Assembly: GCA_001817065.1 (NCBI GenBank)
Contig: MHHQ01000032.1
Coordinates: 1-60,065 of the forward strand
Reading direction: 5' to 3'
DNA length: 60,065 bases
From: Candidatus Andersenbacteria bacterium RIFCSPHIGHO2_02_FULL_46_16
GTDB lineage: Bacteria; Patescibacteriota; Andersenbacteria; UBA10190
Of this stretch, positions 2,352-38,657 are shown piece by piece. The position numbers and the translations under genes were made by a program. A model generated the notes under the pieces. It was not told where the DNA came from. It was given only the letters and a program-made list of their open reading frames with translations, and ran no database searches. Positions within the stretch are counted from its first letter, which is position 1. The number at the start of each line of letters is the position of its first letter.

Positions 2352-2398
2352 ATACGAACATTAGCAATCATAGCCACATTGTATCATTGTAAGAGGTT

Positions 2399-5032: not shown

Positions 5033-5038
5033 ACCACG

Positions 5039-20551: not shown

Positions 20552-20577
20552 TGGTATTAGTTTAAAAATTATGAATA

Positions 20578-20982: not shown

Positions 20983-20992
20983 AGGATTACGG

Positions 20993-22399: not shown

Positions 22400-22431
22400 A
22401 GAGAGCAGTTACCAATTCATACGCCCTCTAG

Positions 22432-22710
22432 CTATCGAAGAGCAGTTGGCAACTGGTCTTCAGGAATTTTTGCAATATAAGGACGGACAGCGTCTCGACA
22501 TACATCGCGAGACAACTGACCAAAAAGTCGTTCGTAGCGTCCAACAAGTGATTCAAGAACTGCTTTCACATCACCTTCTACATAGACCATGTGCGCAGTT
22601 GAATCAAGTCGTAAACCGGGAACTTTTCCAGCTTCTTTCCAAGCTATAGGACCAATAATGAGTTCCTGTTCTTTAATGATTTGAGTTGCAACTCGGTCTT
22701 TAATATCCAT
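22432..22710 (-). CDS. hypothetical protein
   Basis: ORF packed 3 nt from its upstream neighbour; no motif recognised. Confidence 0.4.
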   Translation of the reverse strand: MDIKDRVATQIIKEQELIIGPIAWKEAGKVPGLRLDSTAHMVYVEGDVKAVLESLVGRYERLFGQLSRDVCRDAVRPYIAKIPEDQLPTALR

Positions 22711-22713
22711 AGT

Positions 22714-23541: not shown

Positions 23542-23589
23542 ACTAAAATAATAGCACTGGAATGCTTATAATGTCACTTTTTGTTAATT

Positions 23590-24498
23590 TTAATCAGTAG
23601 AGATACTGCTAATTACATATTTCCTCAAAAAACATACTGGCCTAAAGGCGGTTTTAGAATACCTTAACCCTGAAACCCCTAGATCTTGCTCGTAATTCAG
23701 CAGTGCACAACCCCGTGATATTAAAGCATCAGCAGTCGCTTGCATTAAGTAGGAATAAACTCCAGAAAAGTTGATATTAGCTTTTACAAAATGAGATATT
23801 GCATACCTACTAGTAAGCACTTCATTGATAGAAAATGCTACCGGTGACTTATCTACCAGTACGCCTATACTGATTAATTGAAAACTGTTCGTGGGGAATA
23901 ACAAGCGGGCCATAGCATCTTCTTCATTATCCAGTCGATAGCCTTTATTTTTTTCCCACTGCTGATTTAATTCTTGAACTATTTCCCGATCGCTTACCTT
24001 GGTTAAATCAAGAGCTACTACTTCAATGTTTTTATATTTCCGAGTAAAGCGATTCTTCATGTTACGCTGCTGCTCATAGCTACTGCCTTTGTACTCTCGC
24101 AACTTTTCCAAATCGTAGATGTAATCAAAATTACCTGGATCTTCGCTAACGGTGAAAGGATTAATTTTAACTCCTTTAATAGAATCTTCTGGTATAAGCA
24201 TTAGTGATGGAAGACGCCCCTCACTTATTACAAAAGCTATCAAACTCTCAATTGTGCTGTTAACATCGTGCCCCCCTAAAAATGAATAAAAAGGCTCGCC
24301 CGTAATATAATCATTAAACTTAATAACTAAGTTCTTATTAAGAAATGAAAAACAAGCTTCACCCTTCGTGTCCCAACTCCACAGGCTTGTAAAATTATAA
24401 TCAGAATAAGGAGGATATTGTTTTGTAAAATCCTCGATAACTTTCTTATCGGTAATTTCAAGTTTCTTAAACGTAGGAAATTCAGGAATCATTGCCAT
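23590..24498 (-). CDS. DUF2156 (MprF C-terminal-like) domain protein, paralog 2
   Basis: FPTFKKLEI...PYSDYNFTSLWSWD...GEPFYSFLG. Confidence 0.7.
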   Translation of the reverse strand: MAMIPEFPTFKKLEITDKKVIEDFTKQYPPYSDYNFTSLWSWDTKGEACFSFLNKNLVIKFNDYITGEPFYSFLGGHDVNSTIESLIAFVISEGRLPSLMLIPEDSIKGVKINPFTVSEDPGNFDYIYDLEKLREYKGSSYEQQRNMKNRFTRKYKNIEVVALDLTKVSDREIVQELNQQWEKNKGYRLDNEEDAMARLLFPTNSFQLISIGVLVDKSPVAFSINEVLTSRYAISHFVKANINFSGVYSYLMQATADALISRGCALLNYEQDLGVSGLRYSKTAFRPVCFLRKYVISSISTD

Positions 24499-24544
24499 TA
24501 TTTAAGGGTAACACTTAGGACTACAGTCATAAACACATGTTATG

Positions 24545-24581
24545 AAAAAACCTGAGGGCTCGAATGCGAACCGCTCAGGTT
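24545..24581 (-). terminator. rho-independent terminator
   Basis: Minus strand AACCTGAG-loop-CTCAGGTT followed by TTTTTT, just downstream of 24596-24997. Confidence 0.6.
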
Positions 24582-24595
24582 GACTCTCGCTTTGA

Positions 24596-24997
24596 TCATC
24601 CCGACTCCATGATCACAATGGCGACGATGGCCAAAATGATACCCGCCCACTTCTGAGCAGAAATATCCTCATGGAATACAAGATTGCTCACCGCAATGAT
24701 GAAAATGCAGTTTGAGAGCAAGAAAAGAATCACGCAGTGAGCCAGGGGACCCTTTTTCAACATGAGTAGAAAGAGGGTGAGGGCTACTACCCAAGACAGA
24801 TAGCCGCTTGCGATCAACCACCATTTCCCACCATGCTTAGCCCACTGGTTCAAAAGCGCATCACCAATACCTCCTACAAGCCCCGCCGAGATTGCCAGAA
24901 GATAGAATGCCCATCGAGGCATATCCATGGTAGATCTCCCGTTTTTGGTGCCAAATAAGAAAGAACGAACTGACTCCGCACAATACATGAGTCCCAT
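24596..24997 (-). CDS. small 4-TM transporter (SMR/EamA-half-like); likely start is the internal Met (MDMPRW...)
   Basis: Four hydrophobic helices, about 110 aa core. Confidence 0.5.
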   Translation of the reverse strand: MGLMYCAESVRSFLFGTKNGRSTMDMPRWAFYLLAISAGLVGGIGDALLNQWAKHGGKWWLIASGYLSWVVALTLFLLMLKKGPLAHCVILFLLSNCIFIIAVSNLVFHEDISAQKWAGIILAIVAIVIMESG

Positions 24998-25030
24998 TGA
25001 AGTGTCAATGGCCGTTGTGGTAAAAAATGC

Positions 25031-25390
25031 CTACCCTCGCTCTACTATCGTCGATTTGACACTCTGTGCTTGAAAATAAGTTTTTGAGAATTCTTCGGCT
25101 TTATTAGCATCAAAATCTTTACAGCTGAGTATATCAATAAAAGCTCGATTGCCGACCTCGTCTAAATGAACCGTCACGGAGGAGGTTTCAATAAATTGCA
25201 TGGCAGAGTACCCCTCAAGGTCACCTTGCCCAAATCGCTCAACGTAACATTCTCCTTGAGCAACCATATCAACTACGGTAACGACTTCGACTACGAATCG
25301 TTTTAGTCCTTCAGGGCTAATTAATTTGTCATGGTCACACCCAGCCAGATCAATGGCCAAGGACTTACCCCATGGCTTAATTTTATCCAT
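25031..25390 (-). CDS. S-adenosylmethionine decarboxylase-related (pyruvoyl) family protein, second copy
   Basis: FIETSSVTVHLDE...DILSC resembles the ES(S/H)..H processing motif. Confidence 0.55.
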   Translation of the reverse strand: MDKIKPWGKSLAIDLAGCDHDKLISPEGLKRFVVEVVTVVDMVAQGECYVERFGQGDLEGYSAMQFIETSSVTVHLDEVGNRAFIDILSCKDFDANKAEEFSKTYFQAQSVKSTIVERG

Positions 25391-25402
25391 GTATTAAATA
25401 TA

Positions 25403-25594
25403 CTAAAAATCGTTTATAAAAACACATATATCTGGATCAACAAGGCTACATCGTACGAATACCAGTACCAAACGCTCAGCTAAAAGACCTCCGTCAGTGC
25501 CTGTACCAGCAATTACTACGGTAGCCTGCGACAATCTTTCCTGTTCAGTAGGAGAGATAAGTCCAATATTTCGGCTGAATCTTGAATCATCCAT
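25403..25594 (-). pseudogene. N-terminal fragment of a ThiF/MoeB/E1-like adenylyltransferase
   Basis: RFSRNIGLI...VVIAGTGTDGG (Rossmann GxGxxG), terminated after 63 aa. Confidence 0.5.
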
Positions 25595-25805
25595 TTACTA
25601 TTAGCGTACTACTTAATAAGTACTACTTCTATTTATTTTGATTGTTTTCGTTCTTTTGCTTCTTCTGCCGTTTGTGGATTATTTCTTGCCGCACTAAATC
25701 AAATATCCGATTATATGCCGGTTGCAAACTAGCCTTAGCTTCAGGAGTATCTTCAAAATGGAAAGTAACTTTAGGAATTTTGATTTTCCGACGCATAACA
25801 ATAAC

Positions 25806-26711
25806 TTATTTTCCTCTTATACGGTCAACTTCCATTTGAATCCACTCATCTCCGGCAGCTTCAACTTCTTCATCGCTAAAAGGAATATCTGTCCACTCAA
25901 CTTCTCGATCATCTCCCCTTGCACACTGATCGGCTATTTTCTTTTCGATTGCGTTTATAAAACGGATAGTATTCGAAATATTATTAAAAATGAGAACGCT
26001 CTCGTTATCATTTAGGATCGGATTATCATGAGCAAAACTTTGGTTATTGCGTACGCCATTAAATGCTTCAAGGACTGAAATAGATGACTTCAAAATTCTC
26101 TCTGTCATTTCCGACTCAATCAGATTGTTTTCTTTCAAAAATTTTACATATCCACCAAACAAGCTATGTAATGGGACTTTTTTGTCATAGGAAATGGAAT
26201 GCTTTTCACTAAGCTCTCTAATATGCTTAACAACGAACGTGTGTAAACGATCCAGTGCGCCCGCAGGCTCATTATTTTCGATGCTCTCTCTAATTGATTT
26301 TGCCAACAACGAAAATGTTTCATCATCTGAGTTAGGCATAATTACATCAATATTTTCTATAGGACTATCTTTTTTCAAGCGCTCTAAAATTTTAAGACAG
26401 GCATCATAATATTCAGCCTTTGGATTCGACTCTGGAACCAACCTATTTATTTTGTTTGTAGATGCCCAATAATTCAATAGTTGTTCAAGAAATTTTGCGA
26501 CCAAAAAGTTTGGCTCTTTATCCCAGAATGCCCGTAATCGGTTAGCCTTTGATCCACTCCCATAGTTATATTTCTCGTCGTAGATTTCTACTCCCGTATG
26601 TTCAAGAACAAATTGCTCAAAAGTTCGATTACTAAAATCGATAACATATCCACTATTCATCCCAAATAGCTTCTCAAATTTTAGCTTTTCAATGCTTGAC
26701 AGGTCAGACAT
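25806..26711 (-). CDS. abortive-infection-like protein (Abi_C-type C-terminal domain)
   Basis: NGVRNNQSFAHDN resembles the Abi_C RN..aHG signature; the N-terminus resembles AbiJ-related N-domains. Confidence 0.5.
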   Translation of the reverse strand: MSDLSSIEKLKFEKLFGMNSGYVIDFSNRTFEQFVLEHTGVEIYDEKYNYGSGSKANRLRAFWDKEPNFLVAKFLEQLLNYWASTNKINRLVPESNPKAEYYDACLKILERLKKDSPIENIDVIMPNSDDETFSLLAKSIRESIENNEPAGALDRLHTFVVKHIRELSEKHSISYDKKVPLHSLFGGYVKFLKENNLIESEMTERILKSSISVLEAFNGVRNNQSFAHDNPILNDNESVLIFNNISNTIRFINAIEKKIADQCARGDDREVEWTDIPFSDEEVEAAGDEWIQMEVDRIRGK

Positions 26712-26717
26712 GGCGAC

Positions 26718-27278
26718 TTAGTTAACAAACCCAGTGAGTCTCTTAACCCCTTCTCTTATCTCTGGCAGCAGAGGATTTTCCGGCCAAGCCGACTCAAGAG
26801 CTTTTACTAACTTTTGCTGCTGAGCTAACTTCTCTTCCTTCGGCGCGTTGAATTTTTCAAACACCACATCACCTTGTTCCTCCCCATCATGAACAAGCTC
26901 CAACAGATTGTGCAGCACATCAGCTGATTTAAGCAGCAAAGCATCATGATTCATATCTTTTATATGGCCAAGCGCAATACGCTTGCGCGTCTCCCACGGC
27001 AGACCTTTATCTTCTTCTGTCACTGCCTTAACCAAATCCGCAACCGGTTCACCAAATTGTTCTTGTACATCATCCAGCTCAACATCACTATCCTCCACAA
27101 CATCATGAAGAATACCGGCGACTATTACGTCTTCACTGGCACCAACTTGCGAAAGAATTAATGCAACTGTTAGCGGATGTGTAATATAGGGAATATCCTT
27201 ACCTTTGCGTGTCTGTCCATCATGAGCCGTTATGGCAAAACGAATAGCCTTTTGGATTTTTCCACTATAGGCAATCAT
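26718..27278 (-). CDS. HD-domain hydrolase (RelA/SpoT-type HD_4)
   Basis: FAITAHDGQTRKG...PYITHPLTVA...ILHDVVEDS. Confidence 0.8.
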   Translation of the reverse strand: MIAYSGKIQKAIRFAITAHDGQTRKGKDIPYITHPLTVALILSQVGASEDVIVAGILHDVVEDSDVELDDVQEQFGEPVADLVKAVTEEDKGLPWETRKRIALGHIKDMNHDALLLKSADVLHNLLELVHDGEEQGDVVFEKFNAPKEEKLAQQQKLVKALESAWPENPLLPEIREGVKRLTGFVN

Positions 27279-27283
27279 GTGTG

Positions 27284-29971
27284 TTATTTGGAAAACAACC
27301 TAACAACTTCATCAAAATTTTTGAGCCTGTCCTTTTGCCATTCCTCCTGCTTTATATACAAAGCTTTATAAACCATCCTGGTTTGTCTGTTATTCACGTC
27401 TTCACACCAATTTTGTAGTCGTTCAAATTTCAGTTTATCATCTTCCTCTTCACGCCCTTTTGTCTCAACTATATAAACCGTCCTATCGTCAGTTTTTACA
27501 AAGAAATCGGGGTAATAGGTGGCGATAAAGCCCTGTGAATTTTTATACTCGATCCGTAGCGCACTGGCCTCTTTATTCTGGAAATTTTTTGAGAAGGAAA
27601 TTACATCATCACAATTTTCAATAAAGTCGGAGAACGTCAGTTCATAATCGCTATCACCAACAATCTTATTAAACACTGACTTTTTAGGAATTAGATAAGA
27701 CTTATCATTCACCACAAACGGTCGTGCATCACTGATCTTGATATAGTTCTTTATTTGAGTATCACCCATGTCCTGAACCGTCAGGTCGTTTATTGCCTGC
27801 TTGAATGAGTCCTTAATGAGGTGAATATATTCAACTTCCGACAGATTTCTCAAAGTATTCAGATCCGACAACTCCACCGGCTCATCAAACATGTTATTCT
27901 GTACAAATTCCTTTACTTTGCCAAATAGAATGTCGTAGCAACCAAACAAGCGCAGTTCTCGCATAATTGCTTGCGCGAAAAAGCCGATGACACTTTGATA
28001 GTCAGGTTCAATATCTCCACTCAATATGGTTGTATGATGAGTTACTTCATCCACGACATCTTTAAACACAATCTCTCTTTTTTCCTCATCAGAAAACGAC
28101 TTTACTTTGACTTTGGCATTACCAAAAGTAGCAACATTCAGTTCGGCTAGATTTTTATACTCCCGTTGTATTCTGGGTGACATTACTGGTAGCTCAATAT
28201 CCAGCTTGGATATATCCTTCTTAGGATTATCTTTGTCCACTTCAATAACCATAGGCGCGATTGGCTTTGCGCCAACGCCCATTGCTTTCTTTTCCAAAAT
28301 CACACCTTCACCCTTTATTGATTCAACGAAATCCATAAATGCTGGCGTGCCGACCACGCTCACATATTCTTCAACAGTATCGTCTCCAAAAAACATTCTT
28401 CTTAAACCTCGGCCTAATGTTTGTTCTGGTAAGATTTTTGATTCAGCGGCGTATGGTCTTAAACCCACAATGGTCGTGACATTCTTCACATCCCAACCTT
28501 CTTTTAACATCATGACAGAAATAATTACTTTATATGGACTTTCCCAACTATCTATGTTGTTGGCTAACTTCCTCAATATATCCAACTCCTCCTTATTCTT
28601 ACCGCTAACAGTTTCAGAAATTTCACCACTCTTATTAGTATGAATGGTTAAAACGGCATCCTTTAAATCCGCAAAGCTGGTTTCAATGTATTGAGCCACT
28701 TCATCACAATTCTTGGTATCATCCGTCATGATGAAAAGAATTGATTTTTTGCCTATAGGCTTAAGCGTCTCATACGTTTTGCGCCACTCTTCGATACCCA
28801 GATTGATGTAATCTCGGTATTTTTCACTAAACAACGGGCTTTGATTTTCTTTGAGTTTTCCGCGACTGGCCGCATCTGGCACAACTGGATTTTTTACAAT
28901 TCTCTGATGAATGGCCTCTACTAATGGATAGTCAGAAATTGTTTGCACAAAGATTGAACCATCATTTTTCTTTGGCGTTGCCGTAACATCTAACTGTAAA
29001 GCTAAGCCCGATCCTTTTTGTTTTAACCTGTTATCAATATCCAGGATGGACTTAAACCACGCCATCTTCTCGTCATGGATGTGATGTGCCTCATCATTAA
29101 TAACAATCAGCTCATCAATATCTCTTACGATCATACCGAGATCAACAGTCGAATCATTAGTTTTTGTCACGGGCTCATGACCCAAAAAGTATGCGGACGT
29201 ATCTTCATCATCCAGCCTCGGCTCTCTGACATCGCCTTCAAATACTCTGTGTATATTCGTCAAAAATATATTGCCTGTGTCAGACACATTCCTCAAGTTA
29301 TCTTGTAGATGTAGCGTGACTTGAAAATCATCCTGCCAATTTTGACCTTGATATCCATTATCCGGCAAAACTGGATCACTAAAAAATATCTTTAAGCCTT
29401 CAAAATCATTCTTGATTCTTTCGAAGACAATTACATTCGGCGTTATCAAAAGGAAGTTCTTAGCCAACTGAGAGTCCTGCTCGTATTTCTTATGAAAATA
29501 TGCCCAAGTAATCACCAGACTCATAACCTTTGTCTTGCCGGCACCAGTTGCCATTTTTATAACAAAACGCAACCAATCTTCAATAAACATGCCGGCACTC
29601 AATGCGCCTGTGGAGTTGTAGCGTATGAGATCATATTTATCTTTTACCTTTGCTACTTCGTACAACCAGACGACTGTTTCTAATGCTTCCCTTTGCGCAA
29701 AGTAATATCTAAAATGCGACGCAACACCTTCGTGATCGTACAAAACATGCTCTTCTTTAAACCACCAGTTAAGAAGTGCTTTTGATGTCTCACTCGCACC
29801 TTCATACTGTTTACCTCGCCATTCTTTTACCTTCTTGCGAAGCTCTGCCACAAGCGGTGGTAACAATTTATCATAGCCCTTTTCACGTAAATCTTCAGCT
29901 GCCGGAAACCACCGGATGCTCGGATCTAGTATCGCGTATGGGTCTTTGGGGAAATCTTTGTGGAGAGCCAT
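27284..29971 (-). CDS. res: type III restriction enzyme, Res subunit
   Basis: ATGAGKT, NDEAHH, C-terminal PDF...VETKG nuclease motif. Confidence 0.85.
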   Translation of the reverse strand: MALHKDFPKDPYAILDPSIRWFPAAEDLREKGYDKLLPPLVAELRKKVKEWRGKQYEGASETSKALLNWWFKEEHVLYDHEGVASHFRYYFAQREALETVVWLYEVAKVKDKYDLIRYNSTGALSAGMFIEDWLRFVIKMATGAGKTKVMSLVITWAYFHKKYEQDSQLAKNFLLITPNVIVFERIKNDFEGLKIFFSDPVLPDNGYQGQNWQDDFQVTLHLQDNLRNVSDTGNIFLTNIHRVFEGDVREPRLDDEDTSAYFLGHEPVTKTNDSTVDLGMIVRDIDELIVINDEAHHIHDEKMAWFKSILDIDNRLKQKGSGLALQLDVTATPKKNDGSIFVQTISDYPLVEAIHQRIVKNPVVPDAASRGKLKENQSPLFSEKYRDYINLGIEEWRKTYETLKPIGKKSILFIMTDDTKNCDEVAQYIETSFADLKDAVLTIHTNKSGEISETVSGKNKEELDILRKLANNIDSWESPYKVIISVMMLKEGWDVKNVTTIVGLRPYAAESKILPEQTLGRGLRRMFFGDDTVEEYVSVVGTPAFMDFVESIKGEGVILEKKAMGVGAKPIAPMVIEVDKDNPKKDISKLDIELPVMSPRIQREYKNLAELNVATFGNAKVKVKSFSDEEKREIVFKDVVDEVTHHTTILSGDIEPDYQSVIGFFAQAIMRELRLFGCYDILFGKVKEFVQNNMFDEPVELSDLNTLRNLSEVEYIHLIKDSFKQAINDLTVQDMGDTQIKNYIKISDARPFVVNDKSYLIPKKSVFNKIVGDSDYELTFSDFIENCDDVISFSKNFQNKEASALRIEYKNSQGFIATYYPDFFVKTDDRTVYIVETKGREEEDDKLKFERLQNWCEDVNNRQTRMVYKALYIKQEEWQKDRLKNFDEVVRLFSK

Positions 29972-29973
29972 GA

Positions 29974-30861
29974 TTATGATTTAGATATAGTAAAATCTCC
30001 AATTAAAACCTCGCCACATTCATTAAAAATCCCAACTCTTTTACCAAACATTGGTGGGTTTGTGATCTCTCCTAAAAAGTCACCATCCTTGAACATCTTC
30101 GCCTTTTCACTAGTAAACTCAACACGCACCCTGTGCCATTGATTATCTATTGTTCTCGTACCAAGAATTTTATTAAACCTCCAGTTTACACCCGGCCCCC
30201 CGTCCTTAATAAGGAATGCATCGGAATCTGCTGTTCTACCTTCAAATCGAGCCATATGCCAATTATCTTGTTTATCATCACAGAAAAAGACAATGTTCAA
30301 AACTGAATTCGGGGAAAGATATATATCACATTCAACAGTCCCCCTATCAATCTCCAAATCTTTAGCTATGAGGAAGCTATTAGTGGCCTGGGCGGGGTTT
30401 GCCATTGTGAGCTGAAGTCGTGGATGCCCCATATCAGAAAACAAAGAAGGTTGTCCAGTCTTTATATCCCACCTAGAAGCATCAATTGTATTTTTAGAGC
30501 TTGTAAAATTATCAGAAAATATACTAGAAGGTGAAGATAGACGATAACCACGTTTATCGCTACTAAAAAAGCTCATAAAAACAATTAAAGAGACTATTAG
30601 CCACAACCATTTCACGGGGCTTTGGGCATAAAGGAATGCAATGGAAATAACAAAAATAGTGAACCTCGTGTAGGGATGCATTATTTTGGATAATAACCAC
30701 TGTAAAACATTAGCCAATTTTGGATTTTGTCGATACAACCAATATTTAAATGGCTTAATTACCCAGTACACAAAAATGGTTATAATTATTGTAGCTATTA
30801 AAGTGCCCAGTGCGTTAGCTAGAGCGCTACTCCAAAACGCCTGATCTGTAAAATCGATCAT
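29974..30861 (-). CDS. membrane-anchored protein with C-terminal concanavalin-A/LamG-like (DUF1080-like) beta-sandwich
   Basis: 3-4 N-terminal TM helices. The C-terminal pattern ...WHRVRVEFTSEKAKMFKDGDFLGEI is typical of this fold (weak). Confidence 0.45.
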   Translation of the reverse strand: MIDFTDQAFWSSALANALGTLIATIIITIFVYWVIKPFKYWLYRQNPKLANVLQWLLSKIMHPYTRFTIFVISIAFLYAQSPVKWLWLIVSLIVFMSFFSSDKRGYRLSSPSSIFSDNFTSSKNTIDASRWDIKTGQPSLFSDMGHPRLQLTMANPAQATNSFLIAKDLEIDRGTVECDIYLSPNSVLNIVFFCDDKQDNWHMARFEGRTADSDAFLIKDGGPGVNWRFNKILGTRTIDNQWHRVRVEFTSEKAKMFKDGDFLGEITNPPMFGKRVGIFNECGEVLIGDFTISKS

Positions 30862-32981
30862 ATATTTACCTCGATTACTTTTGTCGTATCGTTTCCAAAA
30901 ATATCCACTACCTTTACAGCAACTTTATAAGTTCCTCTAGTCACTTCCTTAGATACGGAAGTGAGTTCAAGATTTCTATTCTTTTTTGTACGAAAACTCT
31001 GCCATTCATTATCAAATATATAGTCGCCAGTCCAAACTTCTTTTTCCTGCCCATTTTCTAGGATTGTTATTATTTCTTTCCTATCCGCAAAATTGAAATC
31101 CACCGCCCAATAATCAATCCAATCGCTCCACTTTTTAGTTAAAACTTCTTTTTCGACAAGATCGGTTTTCTTGTCTTTTGATATTTTCACCACTTGTCCA
31201 TTTTCTACTATCACTTTTACTCCCCCCGGCCGCAAAGTTTCGACTATTTCGCCCGCGTCGTCTTGATTATAGAAAACAGAAAAGTCAATCAGCTTGATTG
31301 AAAGCTCCTTTTTATTCACCCGCCCTTTCACAATCGGCTTTGCTTCAATAAACGCCACATCATAAAACTTCACTTGTCCTTTTTCTACCGCTTTCCTGTC
31401 GAATACTTCTCTTGGAATTATTCTAAAAGCAATATCGACGCCCTGATCCTTATACTGCGAAAAATCAAGCCCCATCTCGTAGTCAAAGCCCAAAACATCA
31501 ATCTTAGTGATTCCCTTCTCTTTGCACTCTGTCACAATATCTTGCACCAGTTTTAAAGAAACGGGAGTATTGATAGGTCCTACCGCGACAAGGCGATCTC
31601 TTTTCTTACCGATAACATTTACAAAAGATCCTACCGGCTCCGCTTTATACGCAGAAAGTATGAGTTTTACAAATTCTTTCTCTTTCCTTTCGGCTTGTTT
31701 TGATTTTTCTTCCGCTCGCAAATTGTCATTTGTTGCAAGGAAACTTTCTCTTTCGTATCTTCCGACATTCAAAATTTCAAATGCTCGAAAGTTCTTGCCA
31801 GCCTTTTTGAGCTCTCTCTGCACGCCGATTAGTCGTTTACGTGAAGTATGAATCCCAAATTTCCCCAAATCAGAGCCAATCCACTTTCTTCCTAATTTTT
31901 CTGCTACTCCCAACGTTGTGCCAGAACCACAGAAAAAGTCAGCGATGAGGTCGCCTTCGTTTGAAGAAGCTTCAATGATTCTCTCAAGTAGTTCTGTGGG
32001 TTTTTGAGTCGGATAATCGATACGCTCATCGGCGCTTGCATTGATATGTTGAATTGGCCATACATCACCAACTCGTTTACCACCCTCGTTCAGATATACT
32101 TTATATGCCTCTTTTCCGGCACGTTTTTGCCATCGAAACCATTTACCGCTTTCGTCCTGTTTATAATGAGAATCTTTTGTTCCGGCAGTCTCACTATATG
32201 CCTCACGCTGTTCGTTGAAAATCCATTTGCTGGATTTCGTGAACCAGTAAATATTGTCGTGAAGCGTTTGATAGCTATTACTGTTGGCAGTATAGCGTCT
32301 GTAGTACCAAATAATTTCATTTCTAAAATTATCTTTTCCAAATATCTCATCTAGGCACATTCTCATAAAACTATTCACTCTCCAATCGCAATGTACATAA
32401 ATACTTCCATCTTCCGCGAGCAAATCGTGCATGAGTTTTAACCGTTCATAAATCATCGCAATAAAACTATCCGCGCCTTTGCCCCAAGTGTCACGATAGG
32501 CGATTTCTTCTATAACTGACGGCTTTTTGGTAAAGCTTTCTTCGTCCTCGCCATCGCCGATTTTTATATCCATCGAAAAATCCGCCCCGACATCAAACGG
32601 CGGGTCAATGTAAATTAATTTCAATCCACCTTGTGCTTCTATTTCTTTGCGGAGCGGTCCATTCTTGAGGGAAGAAAGAATCAGCTTATTGTCTCCCCAG
32701 ATAAGTTTATTCGTCCATCCAGAAATCTGCCTTCCCGACATATCAAAAAGCGAACCCTGCGGATTCCCAAATTTACCATCACTTCTCGGCTCGTCTATTT
32801 GTTCAATAACCTGAAAAGGCAAGACGACATTCGTTACCTCATTTGTTTTTCCGTTCCAAACCAGCTCGACTTCTCGGTCATCATCAAAAAGCAAAAAGCG
32901 ATACTTTTCCGGAAGCGGCTTTCCGGCTTCCAAAAATTTTGCAATATCTCTTTTCTCGTTATCAGTAAGCTTCATAGTCAC
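30858..32981 (-). CDS. mod: type III R-M Mod DNA methyltransferase (beta-class N6A/N4C)
   Basis: IYIDPPF (motif IV) before DFFCGSGTT (motif I). Confidence 0.85.
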   Translation of the reverse strand: MTMKLTDNEKRDIAKFLEAGKPLPEKYRFLLFDDDREVELVWNGKTNEVTNVVLPFQVIEQIDEPRSDGKFGNPQGSLFDMSGRQISGWTNKLIWGDNKLILSSLKNGPLRKEIEAQGGLKLIYIDPPFDVGADFSMDIKIGDGEDEESFTKKPSVIEEIAYRDTWGKGADSFIAMIYERLKLMHDLLAEDGSIYVHCDWRVNSFMRMCLDEIFGKDNFRNEIIWYYRRYTANSNSYQTLHDNIYWFTKSSKWIFNEQREAYSETAGTKDSHYKQDESGKWFRWQKRAGKEAYKVYLNEGGKRVGDVWPIQHINASADERIDYPTQKPTELLERIIEASSNEGDLIADFFCGSGTTLGVAEKLGRKWIGSDLGKFGIHTSRKRLIGVQRELKKAGKNFRAFEILNVGRYERESFLATNDNLRAEEKSKQAERKEKEFVKLILSAYKAEPVGSFVNVIGKKRDRLVAVGPINTPVSLKLVQDIVTECKEKGITKIDVLGFDYEMGLDFSQYKDQGVDIAFRIIPREVFDRKAVEKGQVKFYDVAFIEAKPIVKGRVNKKELSIKLIDFSVFYNQDDAGEIVETLRPGGVKVIVENGQVVKISKDKKTDLVEKEVLTKKWSDWIDYWAVDFNFADRKEIITILENGQEKEVWTGDYIFDNEWQSFRTKKNRNLELTSVSKEVTRGTYKVAVKVVDIFGNDTTKVIEVNI

Positions 32982-32986
32982 AATTG

Positions 32987-33349
32987 CTATAATACATTTA
33001 GGTACTTAACAAAGAGATAAAGCAATACAAAATTACCCGCGTGGTACATGATACGATGCTGCCACTCTATGCGATTATCCGTTTTTTTACGTTTATCCTT
33101 ATCTTCGATTACTTCACTCTTAATCTCCTTGTGTATGCTGCGTAAATCTTTCTCAAAGTACCTCCATATCATTCCAGCCGTAGCATATAAGAAGAGTGCC
33201 CATATCTCATGGAAGTGTTGCCCTGTAACTAAGGAAATAAATACCAATACACTGGCAACAAAAATAATTAAAAAATATGGTGGCTTATCTTCGAGTAGCT
33301 TTCCGACATGATCCATAAATGCTTCAAACGACCCCATAATCAACTCCAA
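32987..33349 (-). CDS. small membrane protein (3 TM)
   Basis: Hydrophobic spans; overlaps its upstream neighbour. Confidence 0.45.
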   Translation of the reverse strand: MELIMGSFEAFMDHVGKLLEDKPPYFLIIFVASVLVFISLVTGQHFHEIWALFLYATAGMIWRYFEKDLRSIHKEIKSEVIEDKDKRKKTDNRIEWQHRIMYHAGNFVLLYLFVKYLNVL

Positions 33350-33672
33350 TACATCTTTACATCTGAAATCTGCTGTCTAATCTCATCACGGACAGCCTCG
33401 GCTTGTTTTGATAAAATCCACCGCTTGTCCCGCCCTCCCTGTACTTTGTCGAGATAGCCGTTGCGGTAAAGTGCGCCTAGGACAGCACCGGCTGCCTTGC
33501 CTTCAACGAAGTATTCAATTTTCTTCACCACGTCAGAGGTATTAAAGGAATCTTTTCTTAACTGCAAAATCGCGTACAAGGCTCTTTGTTGAGTTTCCGG
33601 AAGTTCATGAACCTTCTTTATTTCTTTGGTCATAAAATCATCTTCGCGCACCACAACTACCTTGTCAACCAC
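33340..33672 (-). CDS. small protein, possibly wHTH
   Basis: Size and helix pattern only. Confidence 0.35.
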   Translation of the reverse strand: MVDKVVVVREDDFMTKEIKKVHELPETQQRALYAILQLRKDSFNTSDVVKKIEYFVEGKAAGAVLGALYRNGYLDKVQGGRDKRWILSKQAEAVRDEIRQQISDVKMYWS

Positions 33673-33679
33673 TATTTAT

Positions 33680-34231
33680 TCACACCCCATGGGCCAAAAC
33701 CTTCAAGCCATTAATTCCTTCATAAAAAACCTTTGCCCATAAGTAGCGGTCAAAATTCCGCAGTGAACACCCTACTTCTATTGCCCTCTCTTTACATATT
33801 TGATTGTATGCCAAATAGGCTAATAAATTTTCTGACGGATTGCTTAGTACCACCTGACCAAGTGACTTGAGCGAAACTATGGCACGGTAATCAACTACTG
33901 TAAAATCATCCGGATAACATACAGCCAGAATGGCTGACGCCATCGGTAAACCAATAAATGAAATCTCAATTAGGAGTTTCACCTTATCCTCCAACGTTGG
34001 TTCTTTGGTTAAAGCAGCCGTTAAATCATGTACAGTGACGCCTTTAAGTAATAAACCTTGCTTAACCTTGGTTTTTGCCCGATTTGATTTCCAAATGACG
34101 ATTGCAAAGAATTCCTCCGGTTCAAGATAACCTCGGGATCGAAAATTCTCTGTGACCGTATTGAAAAGATAATCCTCAATAAAATAGTATTTGATAAAAT
34201 CTGCCTCTTTCCATTTATTAATCTCACTCAT
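33680..34231 (-). CDS. hypothetical protein, possible OGG/HhH-glycosylase-like fold (start taken at MSEINKW)
   Basis: FFAIVIWKSNR... and GLPMASAILAVCYPDDFTVVDYR recall OGG-fold proteins; weak. Confidence 0.35.
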   Translation of the reverse strand: MSEINKWKEADFIKYYFIEDYLFNTVTENFRSRGYLEPEEFFAIVIWKSNRAKTKVKQGLLLKGVTVHDLTAALTKEPTLEDKVKLLIEISFIGLPMASAILAVCYPDDFTVVDYRAIVSLKSLGQVVLSNPSENLLAYLAYNQICKERAIEVGCSLRNFDRYLWAKVFYEGINGLKVLAHGV

Positions 34232-35339
34232 CTTGTTCAGCCTCCAGAACATTCTTAATCCATAAACAAACCTCAAAGAATTTGCTCCGAGCTTCTTTGT
34301 CCGCCATGGTATTGAGGGACAGCTTAAACGCGCCGTTACCATCAACTTTATTCACATCAACCGTCGCATCCTTAATCAATTTCAAGCGTTCCAATATCTC
34401 CGCTCGCTTCCCTCGCTTGTCAAAAGGCGACGGGCAGTAATCACCCTGATGCCATGCATTCCATGAAACCAACGCATCTCCTGTAACTGAAAACGGATAG
34501 AATTTCTTTCCATCCTTGGAATCAAAACCAAGAACGAAAGAACCGCTTTGGTTAGTCATCCAGTAAATCCCGATATCATTGCTCTCTGCCCAATCAATAA
34601 TCTGTCGCGCGGCAGTCACTGCTTCTTCTCCGGATTCTGCTAAGCGCAGTTTAAATGAATCCCAGTCCCATTGCCTGCCAAGAGATTTCTTGGTGGGTAT
34701 GTCTTTTTTAACCTCGGCTCCGAATATACGAGGGATGATAATTTCGTAGGTGTCGTGCTTGTAGTACTCGAGCTCAACGGCATAAATATCAAACTGACTG
34801 TTTTGATTAACGTAGATGATCAAATCCTTAAGCCGGTCATCCAACTTATCCATCAATACGACGAAGTGGAAGATACCATCATTTAGATTAGAACGAACTG
34901 TATTTATTAAGGATTCAGTTTCCTCGTTCGGTAGTTGAAAAAAATCCTGAATTTTTTCCTGCGCTCTTGAGCCAAACACTTTTTGGGTGTGCTCATCGAG
35001 AATAGCAATGAATTCGTTAAAATTATTCGAGTGTTTCCAGAGAGCTGCCCCATAATCAAGCGCTTGGGCGATAACAGTACGCTTATCCGAATTTTTATAA
35101 AGTTTCGTCTCGATAATGTAAAGCTCACCATCAGCATCAATGCCAATCGCATCAATAGGACCGCTGGTAGTAGGAAATTCACGGGCTAAAGTTAGGAGAC
35201 GGATGTCTTCCTTAATATCATAGAGCGGGATGCTGTCCGGGTTTTCGTAAATATATTGTTGCAGACGATCTTCCTGATCAAAGGAAGATTTATCTACCTT
35301 GACTGCTTTCTGACCGTTTTGTGAGATGACAATTGCCAT
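34224..35339 (-). CDS. NucS/DUF91-like PD-(D/E)xK nuclease domain protein with a C-terminal extension
   Basis: EDRLQQYIYENPDSI...GPIDAIGIDADGELYIIETK. Confidence 0.6.
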   Translation of the reverse strand: MAIVISQNGQKAVKVDKSSFDQEDRLQQYIYENPDSIPLYDIKEDIRLLTLAREFPTTSGPIDAIGIDADGELYIIETKLYKNSDKRTVIAQALDYGAALWKHSNNFNEFIAILDEHTQKVFGSRAQEKIQDFFQLPNEETESLINTVRSNLNDGIFHFVVLMDKLDDRLKDLIIYVNQNSQFDIYAVELEYYKHDTYEIIIPRIFGAEVKKDIPTKKSLGRQWDWDSFKLRLAESGEEAVTAARQIIDWAESNDIGIYWMTNQSGSFVLGFDSKDGKKFYPFSVTGDALVSWNAWHQGDYCPSPFDKRGKRAEILERLKLIKDATVDVNKVDGNGAFKLSLNTMADKEARSKFFEVCLWIKNVLEAEQDE

Positions 35340-35372
35340 TGTGCTTATATAGTTTTCAGGTGTCAGGCACTT

Positions 35373-36023
35373 TTATATCTTTACCTTTGCGTCTCCACTA
35401 AAAACCAAGTGTGTCATATCCCAGTATAGGGTACTCAAAAGGGCTGTATCGGCTTTTGAAGTTTCGCTTGTAATTAACTTCCTGATATTTTTCCGAAATG
35501 CCTGGCGGCTATTATTACAAGCTGCTGAGACTGTATTGCCTTTAAGTAAAGAAATTGGAACTTGGGTAGCTGGTTCAAGAAATTTTTTGGCTACTTCATC
35601 ATGATGAGGCTTAGTCTGTTTGTCTCGATCCGTGTAGAAAATAAAATCGGTATTGTAGCCAACAAAAGCCTTAGCTCCCTGGTGCACACTTTCTGGACCA
35701 AGCTCGTTTGCAGCTTGGCAAGATAGGGCATACGTTACAGTATCTTGCAAAATCTTGGCGTTATCATCACTCCGAACAATAGCTACATTGTCCTGTCCAC
35801 AAACTTGATTACTACTGCCATGACCATTGAGAAAGATAAGATCAGGTTTAACTTTGCGCACAATACTTTCAAAATATTTCTTACAGGCACGTTTATTTTT
35901 TAAATCAGTGACTGAATGCCCTTTTTGTTGGACTTCATTGCTGAATTTTCCTGCATAGTAAGAAAGGTAGCGGGTAGTTAAGTCATGATTGGGACGAGTA
36001 ACTACAATCCGCTTAGTCGTCAT
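35373..36023 (-). CDS. hypothetical protein; possible clan CD (caspase/gingipain-like) His-Cys fold
   Basis: LIFLNGHGS followed 34 residues later by YALSCQAA, each after a hydrophobic strand. Confidence 0.3.
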   Translation of the reverse strand: MTTKRIVVTRPNHDLTTRYLSYYAGKFSNEVQQKGHSVTDLKNKRACKKYFESIVRKVKPDLIFLNGHGSSNQVCGQDNVAIVRSDDNAKILQDTVTYALSCQAANELGPESVHQGAKAFVGYNTDFIFYTDRDKQTKPHHDEVAKKFLEPATQVPISLLKGNTVSAACNNSRQAFRKNIRKLITSETSKADTALLSTLYWDMTHLVFSGDAKVKI

Positions 36024-36237
36024 AAAGAGCGCCTTCTTTTAATGCCCGCAAAAAACTCATTTCAACCTCGATAATCTTCTGTCCGACGCGATCGCCTTCT
36101 TCCACATGCTGGATAAGCTCATCTCTTTTATAACTACCGTCAGCTCCAATAGAAATCTCGCGATCAGCGGGTATAGCGCGTAACCGCGCCACAACCAGCT
36201 CTTTTATATCGTCTTGGGTTTCTTCTGGCACGATCAA
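36013..36237 (-). CDS. hypothetical small protein (74 aa)
   Basis: ORF overlapping its downstream neighbour. Confidence 0.4.
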   Translation of the reverse strand: MIVPEETQDDIKELVVARLRAIPADREISIGADGSYKRDELIQHVEEGDRVGQKIIEVEMSFLRALKEGALYDD

Positions 36238-36242
36238 TAAGT

Positions 36243-36422
36243 TTAAATAATTTCCAGGTTAGCTAGCTTTTCTAGAATTTGTCGGCCGCTTTCTGTGTCT
36301 TCAACAATCTCAAGATTGGCTACTCTCCACGTAATAGGCTCACCGTCCAAGACAACCACGACTTGGTCTCGTACATTAAGTGGCAAGTTGGCGTAGACTT
36401 TAAAAAATCTTTCCTTATCCAT
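36243..36422 (-). CDS. hypothetical small protein (59 aa, below the ORF-track cutoff): MDKERFFKVYANLPLNVRDQVVVVLDGEPITWRVANLEIVEDTESGRQILEKLANLEII
   Basis: Translated by hand; its stop lies 5 nt before the next start. Confidence 0.35.
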   Translation of the reverse strand: MDKERFFKVYANLPLNVRDQVVVVLDGEPITWRVANLEIVEDTESGRQILEKLANLEII

Positions 36423-36503
36423 GTAATAGGTAACTATTTTTAGTTAAAGAATATTTGACCATTTGCTCGCGGGGTCGGACTCGAACCGACAACCTAGTGG
36501 TTA

Positions 36504-37050
36504 CATGTAACCCATTATTTTCATAATGGCATGGACTATCTCATTCACCACACCTCTTTTGAGACATGGCGACCGGGCGCTTATGTAGGATTATTGTTGG
36601 GACTCACCTACTAGTCTCTACACCTTCCGAAAAACTAATACCCTTTTCGGCTTGGCTCGGGATTACCAGTTAAGGCTTCCCCGAATTCACCCAGTTATTC
36701 GATCCGCCTCTCGACGGAAAGCTGCGTTATACCAGCATGCAACTCTCTGTGACAATTAGCGCAAACAATTATGCACTTATCAACCTCTGCCTTGACTCTC
36801 ACCCACGAACGAGTTAATCCACTCAATCCCAATCCAAATTTCTTACTCGATTCGTCAATGTGGTGAAAGTCCAAACCAGCTGCACATTTATTATAGCCAC
36901 ACAGCATACATGCTCCGCCTTTGTATTCAACAGCCATAGCCTTAATCTTTCGTCGCCTCTTAGCCACAGCTTGTTTTATATACTCAGCACGGTCAGCATA
37001 AGTTCTTGTCTCTGGCATACACTTCATAGTATACCCGATCAACTTAATAC
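36504..37050 (-). ncRNA. group I intron, IC3-like (Azoarcus/cyanobacterial tRNA-intron type)
   Basis: Strings AAUUCGGGGAAGCCUUAA, CCCGAGCCAAGCC and GAAGGUGUAGAGACUAG, with P7 GACUA/UAGUC, a GAAA-capped hairpin and a terminal G. The 5' exon ends in U. Confidence 0.75.
36695..37027 (-). CDS. intron-encoded HNH endonuclease (ATG at 37027; alternative TTG at 37042)
   Basis: GGACMLCGY...FHHID...VCANCHRELH. Confidence 0.8.
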   Translation of the reverse strand: MKCMPETRTYADRAEYIKQAVAKRRRKIKAMAVEYKGGACMLCGYNKCAAGLDFHHIDESSKKFGLGLSGLTRSWVRVKAEVDKCIIVCANCHRELHAGITQLSVERRIE

Positions 37051-37217
37051 ACAGCCACTTGCTCTGCCATTGAGCTACCCGCGAATAAGGCCTGTTTCCA
37101 GGCCTGTCTCTGAATTATTGCTAACCCAGATATTTTTTAAAACTGTAAAGAACACACCTAAATAAATAGGTGTGTCAATTGTGGCTAATAAACTGGAAAA
37201 ATTCAAGCTCTAGGCCA

Positions 37218-38657
37218 TTAAAACTGGAAATAGATGAATTCTCGCCCCATCACCGGCGCATTCTCCGACATAAACACGTACAGCGCAACAAACAAGACTG
37301 CCGCACCATATACCATTTGATTGATCCGCGGCAACTTCAGCCAGAACAATAAATCCCTCCGTCGCCACTGCATAACCTGCGTTAGCAGCACAATCGCTAT
37401 TACCAGAGAAAAATATAAAACTTTATCGCTAAAGCCGGTCTTAATCTCCCAACTGGAAAACATCGCCAGCAGCATCTCGCCCGCCTGGCCCATAGACCTC
37501 GCCCGAAAAAACAGCCAGCCGATTGCCGCCAAGTGAAAAAATATGATCATCTTCCCAACCTACCATACCCGATACCTGTTCAACGTCTCTCCCCAAGCCT
37601 GTGGCCAAAACCGCTCCATCGCCCGATGCACAATCAAGAGCAATCCTTGGTAACCTCCCCATACCACAAACGTCCAAGCCGCCCCATGCCACAATCCTCC
37701 AAGCAGCATCGTAATCATCAAGTTCCGCTGTGTCTTCCCCCACCCGTGCCGATTGCCGCCGAGCGGAATATATAGATAATCCTTCAACCAAGTCGATAAA
37801 CTGATATGCCACCTCTGCCAAAACTCGCGCGCATTGCGGGAAAAGTATGGCAAATTAAAATTCAACATCAGCTCAAACCCCATCAGTTTCGCCAAGCCCC
37901 TGGCTATATCCGTGTACCCGGAAAAATCGCCGTAGATCTGCCAGGCAAAAGCGTACAACGCCAACCATACTTGCGGCCCGTTATATGGCCCGCCCGCAAA
38001 CACTGGCTCAACCAGCGTCGCCAAACTGTCCGCCACAATGACCTTCTTAAATAAACCCCAGCCAATCAAATACATCCCCTCAAAAACTTTCTGGTCGCTC
38101 AGCCGGCGCGGCCTCATCACTTGCGGTAATAATGATGTCGCCCGCTCGATCGGTCCCGCCACCAGCTGCGGAAAGAAAGCGACGAACAGGGCAAAATCAG
38201 TTAATTTTCTGGCCGGCTTAAGCTGACGACGATAAATATCGATCGTATAGCTCATCGTCTGGAACGTATAAAAGGAAATACCCACCGGCAATATGACATG
38301 CAGCGTGAACCCCTCCACCTGCCAGCCAAAGACGCTCACCAGCTCCACTAAACTATCATTGAAAAAATTGAAGTATTTAAAGAAGCCTAGAATCAGCAGA
38401 CTGGAGCCCATGCTCACCCACAATAGAATTTTTCGTCGCCGCGGCGTTTTGGCTTGATCTATTTTCAAACCAATCACATAATCGATGCCCGTCGACAGCC
38501 ATATCAGGGACAAGAACCGCCAATCCCATGACCCGTAAAAAATATAACTGGCGGCCAGTAGTAAATAATTCTGCCAGCGGTGCGATAAACATAAGTACAA
38601 CAAATACACAACGCTGAAAAACAAAAAGAACTCACTGGTGTTAAAAAACAGCGCCAT
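37218..38657 (-). pseudogene. MBOAT family O-acyltransferase (AlgI/DltB-like) interrupted by one in-frame TAG (37560-37562)
   Basis: ORFs 37560-38657 and 37218-37550 are in the same frame, and together they make a full-length MBOAT. The conserved RWHISLSTW...GGN region is in the first part. Confidence 0.7.

Follow-up and report, generated by a model that had tools for sequence, protein, structure and literature searches.

Contig MHHQ01000032.1 of Candidatus Andersenbacteria bacterium RIFCSPHIGHO2_02_FULL_46_16 (assembly GCA_001817065.1), a stretch of 60,065 nucleotides that we call the window, carries on its minus strand a run of twelve tightly packed genes (positions 25806-36422, named g01 to g12 in the direction of transcription), among them a type III restriction-modification (R-M) system. 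The original prediction for this run had left two readings side by side, namely one composite defence system or several systems stacked on one transcript. Our analysis indicates that the region is probably a tRNA-proximal patch of independently acquired units joined to a type III R-M pair with embedded cargo, and not one twelve-gene machine. Its ordinary part is a mobile type III R-M pair by a tRNA gene, with scattered Abi-, nuclease- and hydrolase-type genes. Its less ordinary part is the junction between the modification gene (mod) and the restriction gene (res), which in this R-M lineage is a precisely bounded, hypervariable and rapidly turning-over slot, here holding a rare protein with a predicted membrane anchor and a concanavalin A (ConA)-like domain.

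In type III R-M, Mod methylates an asymmetric site, while Res, a superfamily 2 (SF2) ATPase joined to a PD..ExK nuclease, cuts unmodified DNA. Cleavage in type III systems depends on ATP and on unmodified sites in inverse orientation, and the asymmetric site becomes hemimethylated. The genomes of Patescibacteria are tiny and hold few known defence systems, and what they keep is therefore informative. A limited literature search turned up no account of such a slot for cargo at mod|res, nor of this R-M lineage in Patescibacteria.

The Mod-Res pair and its lineage

The centre of the run consists of three genes:

30858-32981, minus strand: Mod (g08), type III DNA methyltransferase of the beta class (N6_N4_Mtase, PADLOC MTase_III)
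29974-30861, minus strand: g09, 295 aa, membrane anchor and ConA-like beta-sandwich (AlphaFold2 model, Foldseek)
27284-29971, minus strand: Res (g10), type III restriction subunit (ResIII, PADLOC REase_III)

Mod matches Pfam N6_N4_Mtase (2.1e-48) and PADLOC MTase_III (2.5e-120), and its DPPF motif (residue 126) precedes FCGSG (residue 350), which is the beta-class order. Res matches Pfam ResIII (3.5e-16) and PADLOC REase_III (2.8e-18), has a TnsA/RE_endonuc-like C-terminus, and carries the two motifs of a type III restriction subunit, DEAH of the SF2 ATPase at residue 293 and the PD..ExK nuclease motif PDFF...VETK at 821-838. On their single strand mod precedes res, but the 888-nt g09 intervenes, whereas the two genes are directly adjacent in 28 close relatives. 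No tandem repeats suggesting phase variation were found in mod, nor any notable inverted repeats. The family matches, the motifs and the joint inheritance of the two genes (a Mod homologue is present in 73 of 80 Res loci) bear out the type III assignment first proposed for them, and Mod and Res form a bona fide, intact pair.

Scanning species-representative genomes (one genome per species) gave at least 574 Res relatives. From these the 80 best matches were taken as the sample of Res loci used throughout; they are 68-89% identical to the Res of the window and come almost all from metagenome-assembled genomes (MAGs) of Patescibacteria, the candidate phyla radiation (CPR), spread over many candidate lineages; identity this high across so many lineages points to horizontal spread of the pair. 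Small helix-turn-helix (HTH) genes of the HTH_17/MerR and HTH_3 types recur upstream of mod in the related loci, and PD-(D/E)xK (PDDEXK_1) and DUF2779/Cas4-like genes downstream of res, together with Replic_Relax genes. A large serine recombinase (Resolvase, Recombinase and Zn ribbon domains, 445-588 aa) lies downstream of Res in seven loci (numbered L043, L047, L048, L050, L065, L089 and L094 in our collection of related loci). Another, 67% identical, follows a g09 homologue in L018, and a further one adjoins a g09 homologue in L015. This recurrence suggests that the R-M pair and g09 share a type of mobile element.

A hypervariable slot between mod and res

Ordinary type III systems had been described in the original prediction as plain mod-res pairs, a description that fails for this lineage, in which 45 of 73 loci carry an insert between the two genes. 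In the remaining 28 the slot is empty, with res starting 0-6 nt after the mod stop. Filled slots hold 430-2300 bp of co-directional open reading frames (ORFs), and at least 40 families, none of them detectably similar to another, make up the inserts. In a set of 47 representative cargo proteins, the Pfam matches include AAA_15/AAA_21/OLD-TOPRIM, SLFN_AlbA_2 with HATPase_c_4, DUF3800 and DUF4145, as well as ClpP/SDH proteases, PIN_12, PIN_8, Fic, NYN, RiboL-PSP HEPN, trypsin and Bro-N; PADLOC matches are to Old, AriA, GajA, PtuA and AbiLi-type models. For 52 of 74 loci the nearest Res relative has its slot in another state, and this holds even for pairs of loci whose Res proteins are ~95% identical.

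The edges of the slot are as constant as its content is variable. The cargo ATG overlaps a TGA stop of mod (ATATGA) in 19 of the 45 filled loci, in front of unrelated cargos, while mod ends in TGA in only 1 of the 28 empty ones; the window and locus L121 have the same ATGA junction. Coupling of this kind across unrelated cargos points to an exact, translationally coupled boundary that they hold in common. At the DNA level, conservation extends over the last ~45 nt of mod (..IFGNDTTKVIEVKI and its stop) and the first ~25 nt of res, which would be the sequences that homologous recombination needs in order to swap one cargo for another.

g09, the cargo of the window

The gene g09 starts within the ATGA that it shares with the end of mod, and 2 nt separate its own end from the start codon of res. 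It lies between Mod and Res in their own orientation, and homologous hosts have the place empty or otherwise filled, which is the pattern of an embedded gene. Its AlphaFold2 (AF2) model, with a predicted local distance difference test (pLDDT) value of 78.8, has four N-terminal helices (residues 7-99) and 15 strands (113-294), and Foldseek aligns it with GH16 glucanases and CBM66 (E ~1e-8, template modelling (TM) score on the target up to 0.78). A predicted three-helix membrane anchor and a modelled ConA-like beta-sandwich agree with the label of membrane lectin-fold protein that g09 had first been given. The protein of the window has no Pfam match at E <= 0.1 and none in NCBIfam, PHROG or PADLOC; PF06439 appears as a precomputed, partly weak match in some homologues, and the window's g09 falls below the threshold of that family. 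Lys and Arg residues are clustered throughout the family in the loop 36-66 and after the last hydrophobic helix, so that by the positive-inside rule the beta-sandwich would lie in the cytoplasm.

The family is compact. An indexed search gave 20 matches, all of ~295 aa, and a profile search over 1.84 billion clusters gave 124 representatives, mostly 290-340 aa long. Scanning the species-representative genomes with the single protein found nothing and with an alignment one locus only; viral contigs likewise gave nothing. The Mod-g09-Res layout is repeated in L121 (Mod 53%, g09 70% and Res 71% identical), and in L123 a distant type III-like Res (26%) is followed by g09 (41%) and then by an HD protein of the g11 type (60%). 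Other R-M genes also stand beside g09: in L007 and L008 it immediately follows, and overlaps by 4 nt, the gene of a 1154-aa methyltransferase of the MmeI/Eco57I type, with GmrSD, DUF5677 and SNF2 helicase genes alongside, and in L013 it is near an N6_N4 methyltransferase and a HinfI-type nuclease. Further neighbourhoods read Fic-g09-RhuM (L120), HEPN_Swt1-g09 (L131) and g09 with an M78-domain protein (L132).

One may ask whether g09 is a functional third subunit, or a membrane tether, of this type III enzyme. Its ATGA overlap with mod and its end 2 nt before res, the layout kept in L121 at 53% Mod and 71% Res identity, and the homologues that follow or adjoin other R-M methyltransferases or Res (L008, L013, L123) are all in keeping with such a role. 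On the other hand, the slot is empty in 28 close relatives and filled with unrelated cargo in 45, and in L015, L120, L126, L131 and L132 the homologues have no R-M gene nearby, for which reason we regard a subunit role as unlikely. From these distributions g09 appears to be a mobile single-gene unit that lives mostly amid R-M and conflict genes and is neither required by this pair nor restricted to it. If PrrC, TgvAB, BrxU and the candidates that Payne et al. describe as embedded are taken as a guide, it is most likely an accessory second-line defence protein.

One composite system or separate units

A re-check of the ORFs confirmed all twelve co-directional minus-strand genes at the coordinates first given, as well as the four overlaps, two of which depend on the choice of start codon. 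g02 and g03 overlap by 11 nt (36013-36023), and Mod and g09 by 4 nt (ATGA, 30858-30861). The overlap of g04 and g05 is 8 nt (34224-34231) if ATG 34231 is taken as the g05 start, and that of g06 and g07 is 10 nt (33340-33349) with TTG 33349 as the g07 start, ATG 33337 giving a gap of 2 nt instead. The non-overlapping junctions are gaps of 2-33 nt, which makes a single shared transcript plausible. Consensus scans for promoters and terminators did no better than shuffled sequence (29 against 30.9, and 14 against 9.0 ± 3.4, respectively), and neither placed a site inside any gene junction.

Co-directional genes whose junctions range from -11 to +33 nt, four of them overlapping, the lack of terminator-like sites at these junctions in the consensus scan, and the same twelve-gene order in the same-species contigs L001-L005 are what one would expect if all twelve genes formed one composite, interdependent defence system in one operon. 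Tight packing is, however, the norm of the whole window: the minus strand holds 57 of 70 ORFs, the median same-strand gap is 10 nt, 31 of 48 such gaps are at most 35 nt, and the co-directional run spans 20075-38657, beyond both cluster ends. Packing alone is therefore no sign of one system. The full order is conserved, moreover, within one species only. Rifle-aquifer metagenome scaffolds and NCBI assembly GCA_001817145.1 contain identical proteins. Homologues of the accessory genes come from Patescibacteria MAGs in nearly all cases, which by itself would make the organism a probable member of that phylum.

All twelve proteins and their neighbours were compared by tblastn with the 80 Res loci, in which no homologue of g04, g05, g06, g09 or g12 was detected. 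A g11 homologue was present in two loci, a g07 homologue in one (L032), and g01, g02 and g03 together in one (L045), where they lie ~2.3 kb downstream of Res, a position unlike that in the window. None of the ten non-R-M genes is co-inherited with Res; only Mod is. The original prediction had named independent occurrence of the unknown genes, apart from one another and from the defence genes, as the outcome that would count against a composite system, and this is what the comparison returned. The parts occur independently of one another in the loci compared (80 of Res, 13 of the cassette, 31 of HD, and those of g05, g04 and g12), and this makes one twelve-gene system very improbable. The other reading offered at the outset, that of stacked systems, is upheld by the separate distributions of g01-g03, g04, g05, g11 and g12, as detailed below.

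The g01-g03 cassette

The first three genes of the run are the following:

36243-36422, minus strand: g01, 59 aa, first cassette gene (found upstream of g03 homologues, 46-63% identity)
36013-36237, minus strand: g02, 74 aa, middle cassette gene (found between g01 and g03 homologues)
35373-36023, minus strand: g03, 216 aa, minimal caspase/CHAT-fold protein of clan CD (AF2, Foldseek, His68-Cys102)

An alignment of 33 g03 sequences was too diverse for a locus scan, and a subset of 14 sequences was used instead, which gave 13 loci. Gene order and small overlaps are kept in all 13 and in L045. Across these 14 cassette loci, g01 is detected directly upstream of g03 homologues in 13 (the exception, L111, has g02 and a partial g03 without detectable g01) and g02 in 11, with a small ORF called at its position in the others; none of them contains any of g04-g12. 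Their neighbourhoods vary, with FtsEX/RF-2/M23 genes, with sugar-nucleotide genes, or with arginine genes that stand next to AbiEii, Fic and ParE. g02 and g03 are also found together in DPANN archaea (Nanoarchaeota and Diapherotrites MAGs; L111, P0107/P0108), which makes the cassette common to ultra-small bacteria and ultra-small archaea.

The suggestion that the 216-aa protein has a His-Cys dyad proved sound: N66-G67-H68-G69 and C102 are invariant in the 33 sequences, and His68 and Cys102 sit on a caspase fold in the AF2 model (pLDDT 96.5). Its top Foldseek matches in the PDB are SAVED-CHAT (8tl0, E 8e-7), caspase-4, separase, gingipain and the CHAT protein of Craspase. Sequence comparison of g03 with Pfam (CHAT included), NCBIfam, PADLOC and PHROG found no match, nor did a profile search of PDB sequences, while one homologue is named CHAT domain-containing by UniRef. 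g01 and g02 have no match in Pfam, NCBIfam, PHROG or PADLOC. g01-g02-g03 form a self-contained cassette of three genes with a minimal caspase/CHAT-fold protein at its centre.

Other flanking genes

Six further genes flank the R-M pair, four on the upstream and two on the downstream side:

34224-35339, minus strand: g04, 371 aa, N-terminal PD-(D/E)xK domain, NucS/Cas4-like (PADLOC PDC-S11/PDC-S18)
33680-34231, minus strand: g05, 183 aa, helix-hairpin-helix (HhH) protein, remotely OGG2-like (family profile against PDB)
33340-33672, minus strand: g06, 110 aa, soluble (sub-threshold matches)
32987-33337, minus strand: g07, 116-120 aa, small membrane protein directly upstream of mod (hydrophobic segment)
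26718-27278, minus strand: g11, 186 aa, stand-alone SpoT-type HD hydrolase, small alarmone hydrolase (HD_4)
25806-26711, minus strand: g12, 301 aa, C-terminal Abi_C (HEPN-type) domain (Pfam Abi_C)

The PADLOC candidate PDC-S11 is matched by g04 at 3.9e-18 over less than full length, with residues 8-216 aligned to positions 10-193 of the 358 in the profile, and no domain is assigned to the C-terminal half; PDC-S18 is matched at 7.9e-9, and the nuclease motif reads D63..E77-T-K79. Of the earlier description as a NucS-like PD-(D/E)xK nuclease, the nuclease part is backed by the PDC-S11 match and the NucS part less so, NucS_C being matched weakly (0.0087). Homologues with 56-58% identity occur in two IMG/VR contigs that hold no other gene of the cluster.

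The g05 family comprises at least 325 proteins of ~180 aa, some of them named 8-oxoguanine DNA glycosylase by JGI. Its profile matches PDB entries 9o02, 3fhg and 3knt remotely (E 1.4e-4 to 4e-3); in the best of these alignments (E 1.4e-4) the profile segment GIGlpmASAiL...vvDyr is paired with IKGLGMSEASHFL...IIDRH of OGG2, and D114 is nearly invariant. For g06, matches of the Sar/MarR type are all sub-threshold (NCBIfam 0.0082, PHROG transcription regulator 0.0067, a SarA homologue in the PDB 0.7), and by a weak call it may be a winged-helix regulator. g07 has one strong hydrophobic segment (residues 21-39) and no family match in Pfam, NCBIfam, PHROG or PADLOC, the Pfam hits being sub-threshold. 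PDB sequence searches with g04, g06 and g12 returned nothing significant. A module of g05, g06 and g07 was considered and rejected, as g05 homologues are solo genes in unrelated contexts and L032 has g07 upstream of Mod without g06.

The labels of HD hydrolase for g11 and Abi_C-type protein for g12 both hold. g11 matches HD_4 (1.2e-20, 74 bits against a cutoff of 27), has the hydrolase domain only and no synthetase domain, and aligns with small alarmone hydrolases and MESH1 in the PDB at 1e-30 to 1e-18. Its homologues in 31 loci have no conserved neighbours and neither g12/Abi_C nor g09 nearby; two homologues lie near a type III Res, in L086 (76-77% identity) and L123 (60%). g12 matches Abi_C (1.9e-11, 44.3 bits against a cutoff of 24) and contains the Rx6H motif R221-x6-H228 (RNNQSFAH at 221-228), and no domain is assigned to its N-terminal half; Abi_C was reportedly recognised as a HEPN family by Anantharaman and colleagues in 2013. 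A 55% identical g12 homologue in L169, a viral contig of IMG/VR, has no HD neighbour, and this, with the 31 HD loci that lack an Abi_C neighbour, led us to reject g11 and g12 as a toxin-antitoxin-like pair. In L086, the stretch 3730-6127 downstream of a 70% identical Res encodes a 420-aa coiled-coil protein, a 302-aa protein and the g11 homologue. The 302-aa protein has a NucS-type N-terminus by eye, while BLAST against g04 is not significant (E 0.15). These genes may be of the same kinds as those of the window, though not orthologous in order.

The co-directional run continues 3' of g12 with a 55-aa ORF, a 63-aa ThiF fragment, and AdoMet decarboxylase, EamA and LPG-synthase genes. The 63-aa ORF (25403-25594, minus strand), whose similarity to ThiF/E1 enzymes is confined to their first ~50 residues and whose PADLOC matches, to E1-E2, are weak, looks like what is left of a decayed gene just beyond the cluster.

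To what extent, then, are the unknown genes defence genes, as originally proposed? The proposal fares well for g04, with its PADLOC candidate match, and for g12, with Abi_C; it fares poorly for g05 and g11, which are widespread solo genes amid ordinary ones and may be housekeeping. Most of the non-R-M genes could even be ordinary or selfish genes (repair, alarmone turnover, a cellular protease cassette) that came by chance to lie in a co-directional string at a tRNA gene. Homologues of g05 beside NAD kinase and RecN-type genes, solo g11 homologues without conserved neighbours in 31 genomes, cassettes amid FtsEX/RF-2, sugar-nucleotide or arginine genes, and a string that runs from g12 straight into polyamine and lipid genes all speak for it. 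The g04 match to PADLOC candidates, the Rx6H motif within Abi_C of g12, the AbiEii, Fic or ParE genes that adjoin some cassettes, the position of g11 beside a type III Res in three loci, and a slot cargo rich in known defence domains speak against it. We give this explanation a substantial chance, if one short of even.

The tRNA end and the surrounding stretch

The cluster starts 43 nt from the 3' end of a tRNA-Asn gene, as had been expected of its position at a tRNA end; this tRNA is split by an intron:

36465-37084, minus strand: tRNA-Asn(GUU) bounding the cluster (ARAGORN with intron option, tRNA-Asn (gtt) i(35,547))
37051-37084, minus strand: 5' exon of tRNA-Asn (ARAGORN with intron option)
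36504-37050, minus strand: group I intron, 547 nt, after tRNA position 34 (Rfam Intron_gpI and ARAGORN)
36465-36503, minus strand: 3' exon of tRNA-Asn (ARAGORN with intron option)
36695-37042, minus strand: HNH-type ORF, 115 aa, inside the intron (domain match)

With default settings, ARAGORN misses the split gene and finds no tRNA in the window. The intron is matched by Rfam Intron_gpI at 36512-36780 (57.3 bits, E 6e-12), and the splice choice adopted is the sole one that obeys the U|...G| rule, in which a U precedes the 5' splice site and the intron closes with a G. Group I introns in tRNAs of CPR bacteria have been noted previously (PMC8172020). The same arrangement is present in L001-L005; the impression that these contigs lack the HNH ORF was rejected, since the 110-aa gene called in them is that ORF. 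Beyond the tRNA, an MBOAT gene (37218-38657, minus strand) is broken into two ORFs of 365 and 110 aa, whereas L001 and L002 have a single gene of 468-479 aa; a frameshift or a sequencing error is possible.

Some 35 kb away, at ~1558-1592 (minus strand), 33 nt repeat the 3' part of the tRNA-Asn in degenerate form, without a 5' half; they could be a distal remnant of an attachment (att) site. This is the sole copy, and no direct repeat of the tRNA end was found within 20-38 kb. Most of the stretch between the tRNA and this fragment is lower in G+C than the sequence beyond the tRNA, and its genes include polyamine, AMP-ligase and PEP-utilising ones. We rejected a classical island with an integrase between the two, as no integrase or recombinase domain was found in the annotated genes there. 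The low-G+C stretch also contains two paralogous LPG_synthase_C genes (10288-11238 and 23590-24498) and two AdoMet decarboxylase genes (13611-14015 and 25031-25390). Around the tRNA fragment is a conflict-type patch (456-4588) with a Fic protein (456-1511), a DUF3800 protein (1794-2351, minus strand) and, at 2399-4588, a 729-aa AEP-TOTE primase fused to an SF2 helicase (TOTE conflict system domain, 1.8e-70).

A proposed mode of action and its implications

We envisage that the genome's habitual co-directional, tight gene order strung independently acquired units together. At the core would stand the intact type III pair, in which Mod methylates its site and Res cuts unmodified DNA, following established type III biology. 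The lineage of this pair would spread horizontally in Patescibacteria, and its frequent companions would be small HTH genes, PD-(D/E)xK nucleases and a large serine recombinase. g09 would be co-expressed with mod through translational coupling, and might act at the membrane, with its beta-sandwich sensing a cue of infection. The flanks would consist of separate units: the minimal caspase/CHAT-fold protease cassette, a PDC-S11-like nuclease and an OGG2-like HhH protein, followed by a possible regulator, a small membrane protein, a small alarmone hydrolase and a predicted RNase of the Abi_C/HEPN type.

Going further, the slot could be a dedicated, often ATGA-coupled site that swaps dozens of accessory immune genes faster than Res diverges, and g09 a so far unrecognised anti-phage effector, encoded by a single gene, that supports restriction where, for instance, DNA escapes it; this we offer only tentatively, as the more doubtful part of our interpretation. 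Several observations weigh against our interpretation as a whole. The sample is the best 80 of at least 574 Res relatives, mostly from fragmented MAGs, and the genes in related loci are our own ORF calls. A defence activity of g09 is deduced from its position and neighbours, and some g09 homologues stand beside major facilitator superfamily (MFS), sigma-factor or phosphotransferase genes and not beside defence genes (L015, L126). The g07 homologue in L032, 37% identical, is directly upstream of Mod as in the window. Three loci have g11 beside a type III Res, namely the window, L086 and L123, and in L123 a g09 homologue adjoins it too, a loose association that would be compatible with a looser functional link of g09, g11 and Res.

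The analysis carries guilt by embedding beyond type I R-M, BREX, DISARM and Hma, into type III R-M and an uncultured phylum, and the 80 loci supply at least 40 cargo families as candidates, many of them without a known domain. Two compact candidate families are flagged in particular, namely the 295-aa protein with anchor and ConA-like domain and the 216-aa caspase/CHAT-fold protein with its two small partners. In genomes of this kind, tight co-directional packing should not count as evidence of one system. If the cargo-slot reading is true, type III R-M loci of uncultured ultra-small bacteria would be a rich, untapped source of new defence genes, and the minimal CHAT cassette g01-g03 would be a second new system.

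Comparison with known systems

Like the type III enzymes EcoP15I and EcoP1I, the pair has a beta-class Mod, a Res with SF2 and PD..ExK parts, and mod upstream of res on one strand; it differs in the unrelated 295-aa gene between mod and res, a place that holds inserts in 45 of 73 loci of the lineage. BrxU is an embedded gene in BREX. PrrC is embedded in the type IC EcoprrI locus (PMC12707154), and TgvAB in a type I R-M system of Vibrio cholerae (PMC11411939). A guilt-by-embedding survey with Hma, BREX, DISARM and type I R-M as hosts yielded the HEC/PDC candidates, of which PDC are now in PADLOC, and its text does not name a type III host system (Payne et al., 2024; bioRxiv 10.1101/2024.01.29.577857). 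In a study of type III systems with N4-methylcytosine (m4C), the one additional gene mentioned is helicase-like and lies 5' of mod (PMC8259958).

The embedding of defence genes is thus already established, and the type III slot is a variant of that pattern. As with PrrC, TgvAB, BrxU and HEC/PDC, the cargo has the orientation of its host, its slot varies among homologous hosts, and it is rich in OLD/AAA ATPases and HEPN, PIN, Fic and DUF4145-type domains. The differences are that the host here is type III and in Patescibacteria, whereas the hosts of the survey are Hma, BREX, DISARM and type I R-M; that the slot consists of one junction with exact bounds, in which ATGA often couples the cargo to the end of mod; and that g09, with its anchor and ConA-like domain, matches no PADLOC model. 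The C-terminal 185 residues of g09 are modelled as a ConA-like beta-sandwich such as those of PF06439/DUF1080 (3-keto-disaccharide hydrolase-like), GH16 and CBM66. Unlike PF06439/DUF1080 proteins, g09 has no Pfam match, a multi-helix membrane anchor, a beta-sandwich predicted to be cytoplasmic, and a context of defence and mobile genes instead of carbohydrate use.

The flanking units likewise have known counterparts. g03 shares with SAVED-CHAT and the TPR-CHAT protein of Craspase the caspase fold, the invariant His-Cys dyad and the GHG...SC arrangement, but it is a protein of 216 aa without a sensor or repeat domain and without a Pfam CHAT match, is preceded by two small ORFs (~60 and ~75 aa), often lies amid housekeeping genes, and comes from Patescibacteria and a few DPANN archaea. 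PDC-S11 and PDC-S18 are single-gene candidates defined by embedding in BREX, DISARM or type I R-M (bioRxiv 10.1101/2024.01.29.577857); g04 resembles PDC-S11 in its N-terminal PD-(D/E)xK half, but over residues 8-216 of 371 only. Finally, g11 agrees with the small alarmone hydrolases, MESH1 and bacterial SAH, in its HD_4 domain and its matches to solved structures, and differs in having no adjacent alarmone synthetase or toxSAS gene and in standing directly after Res.

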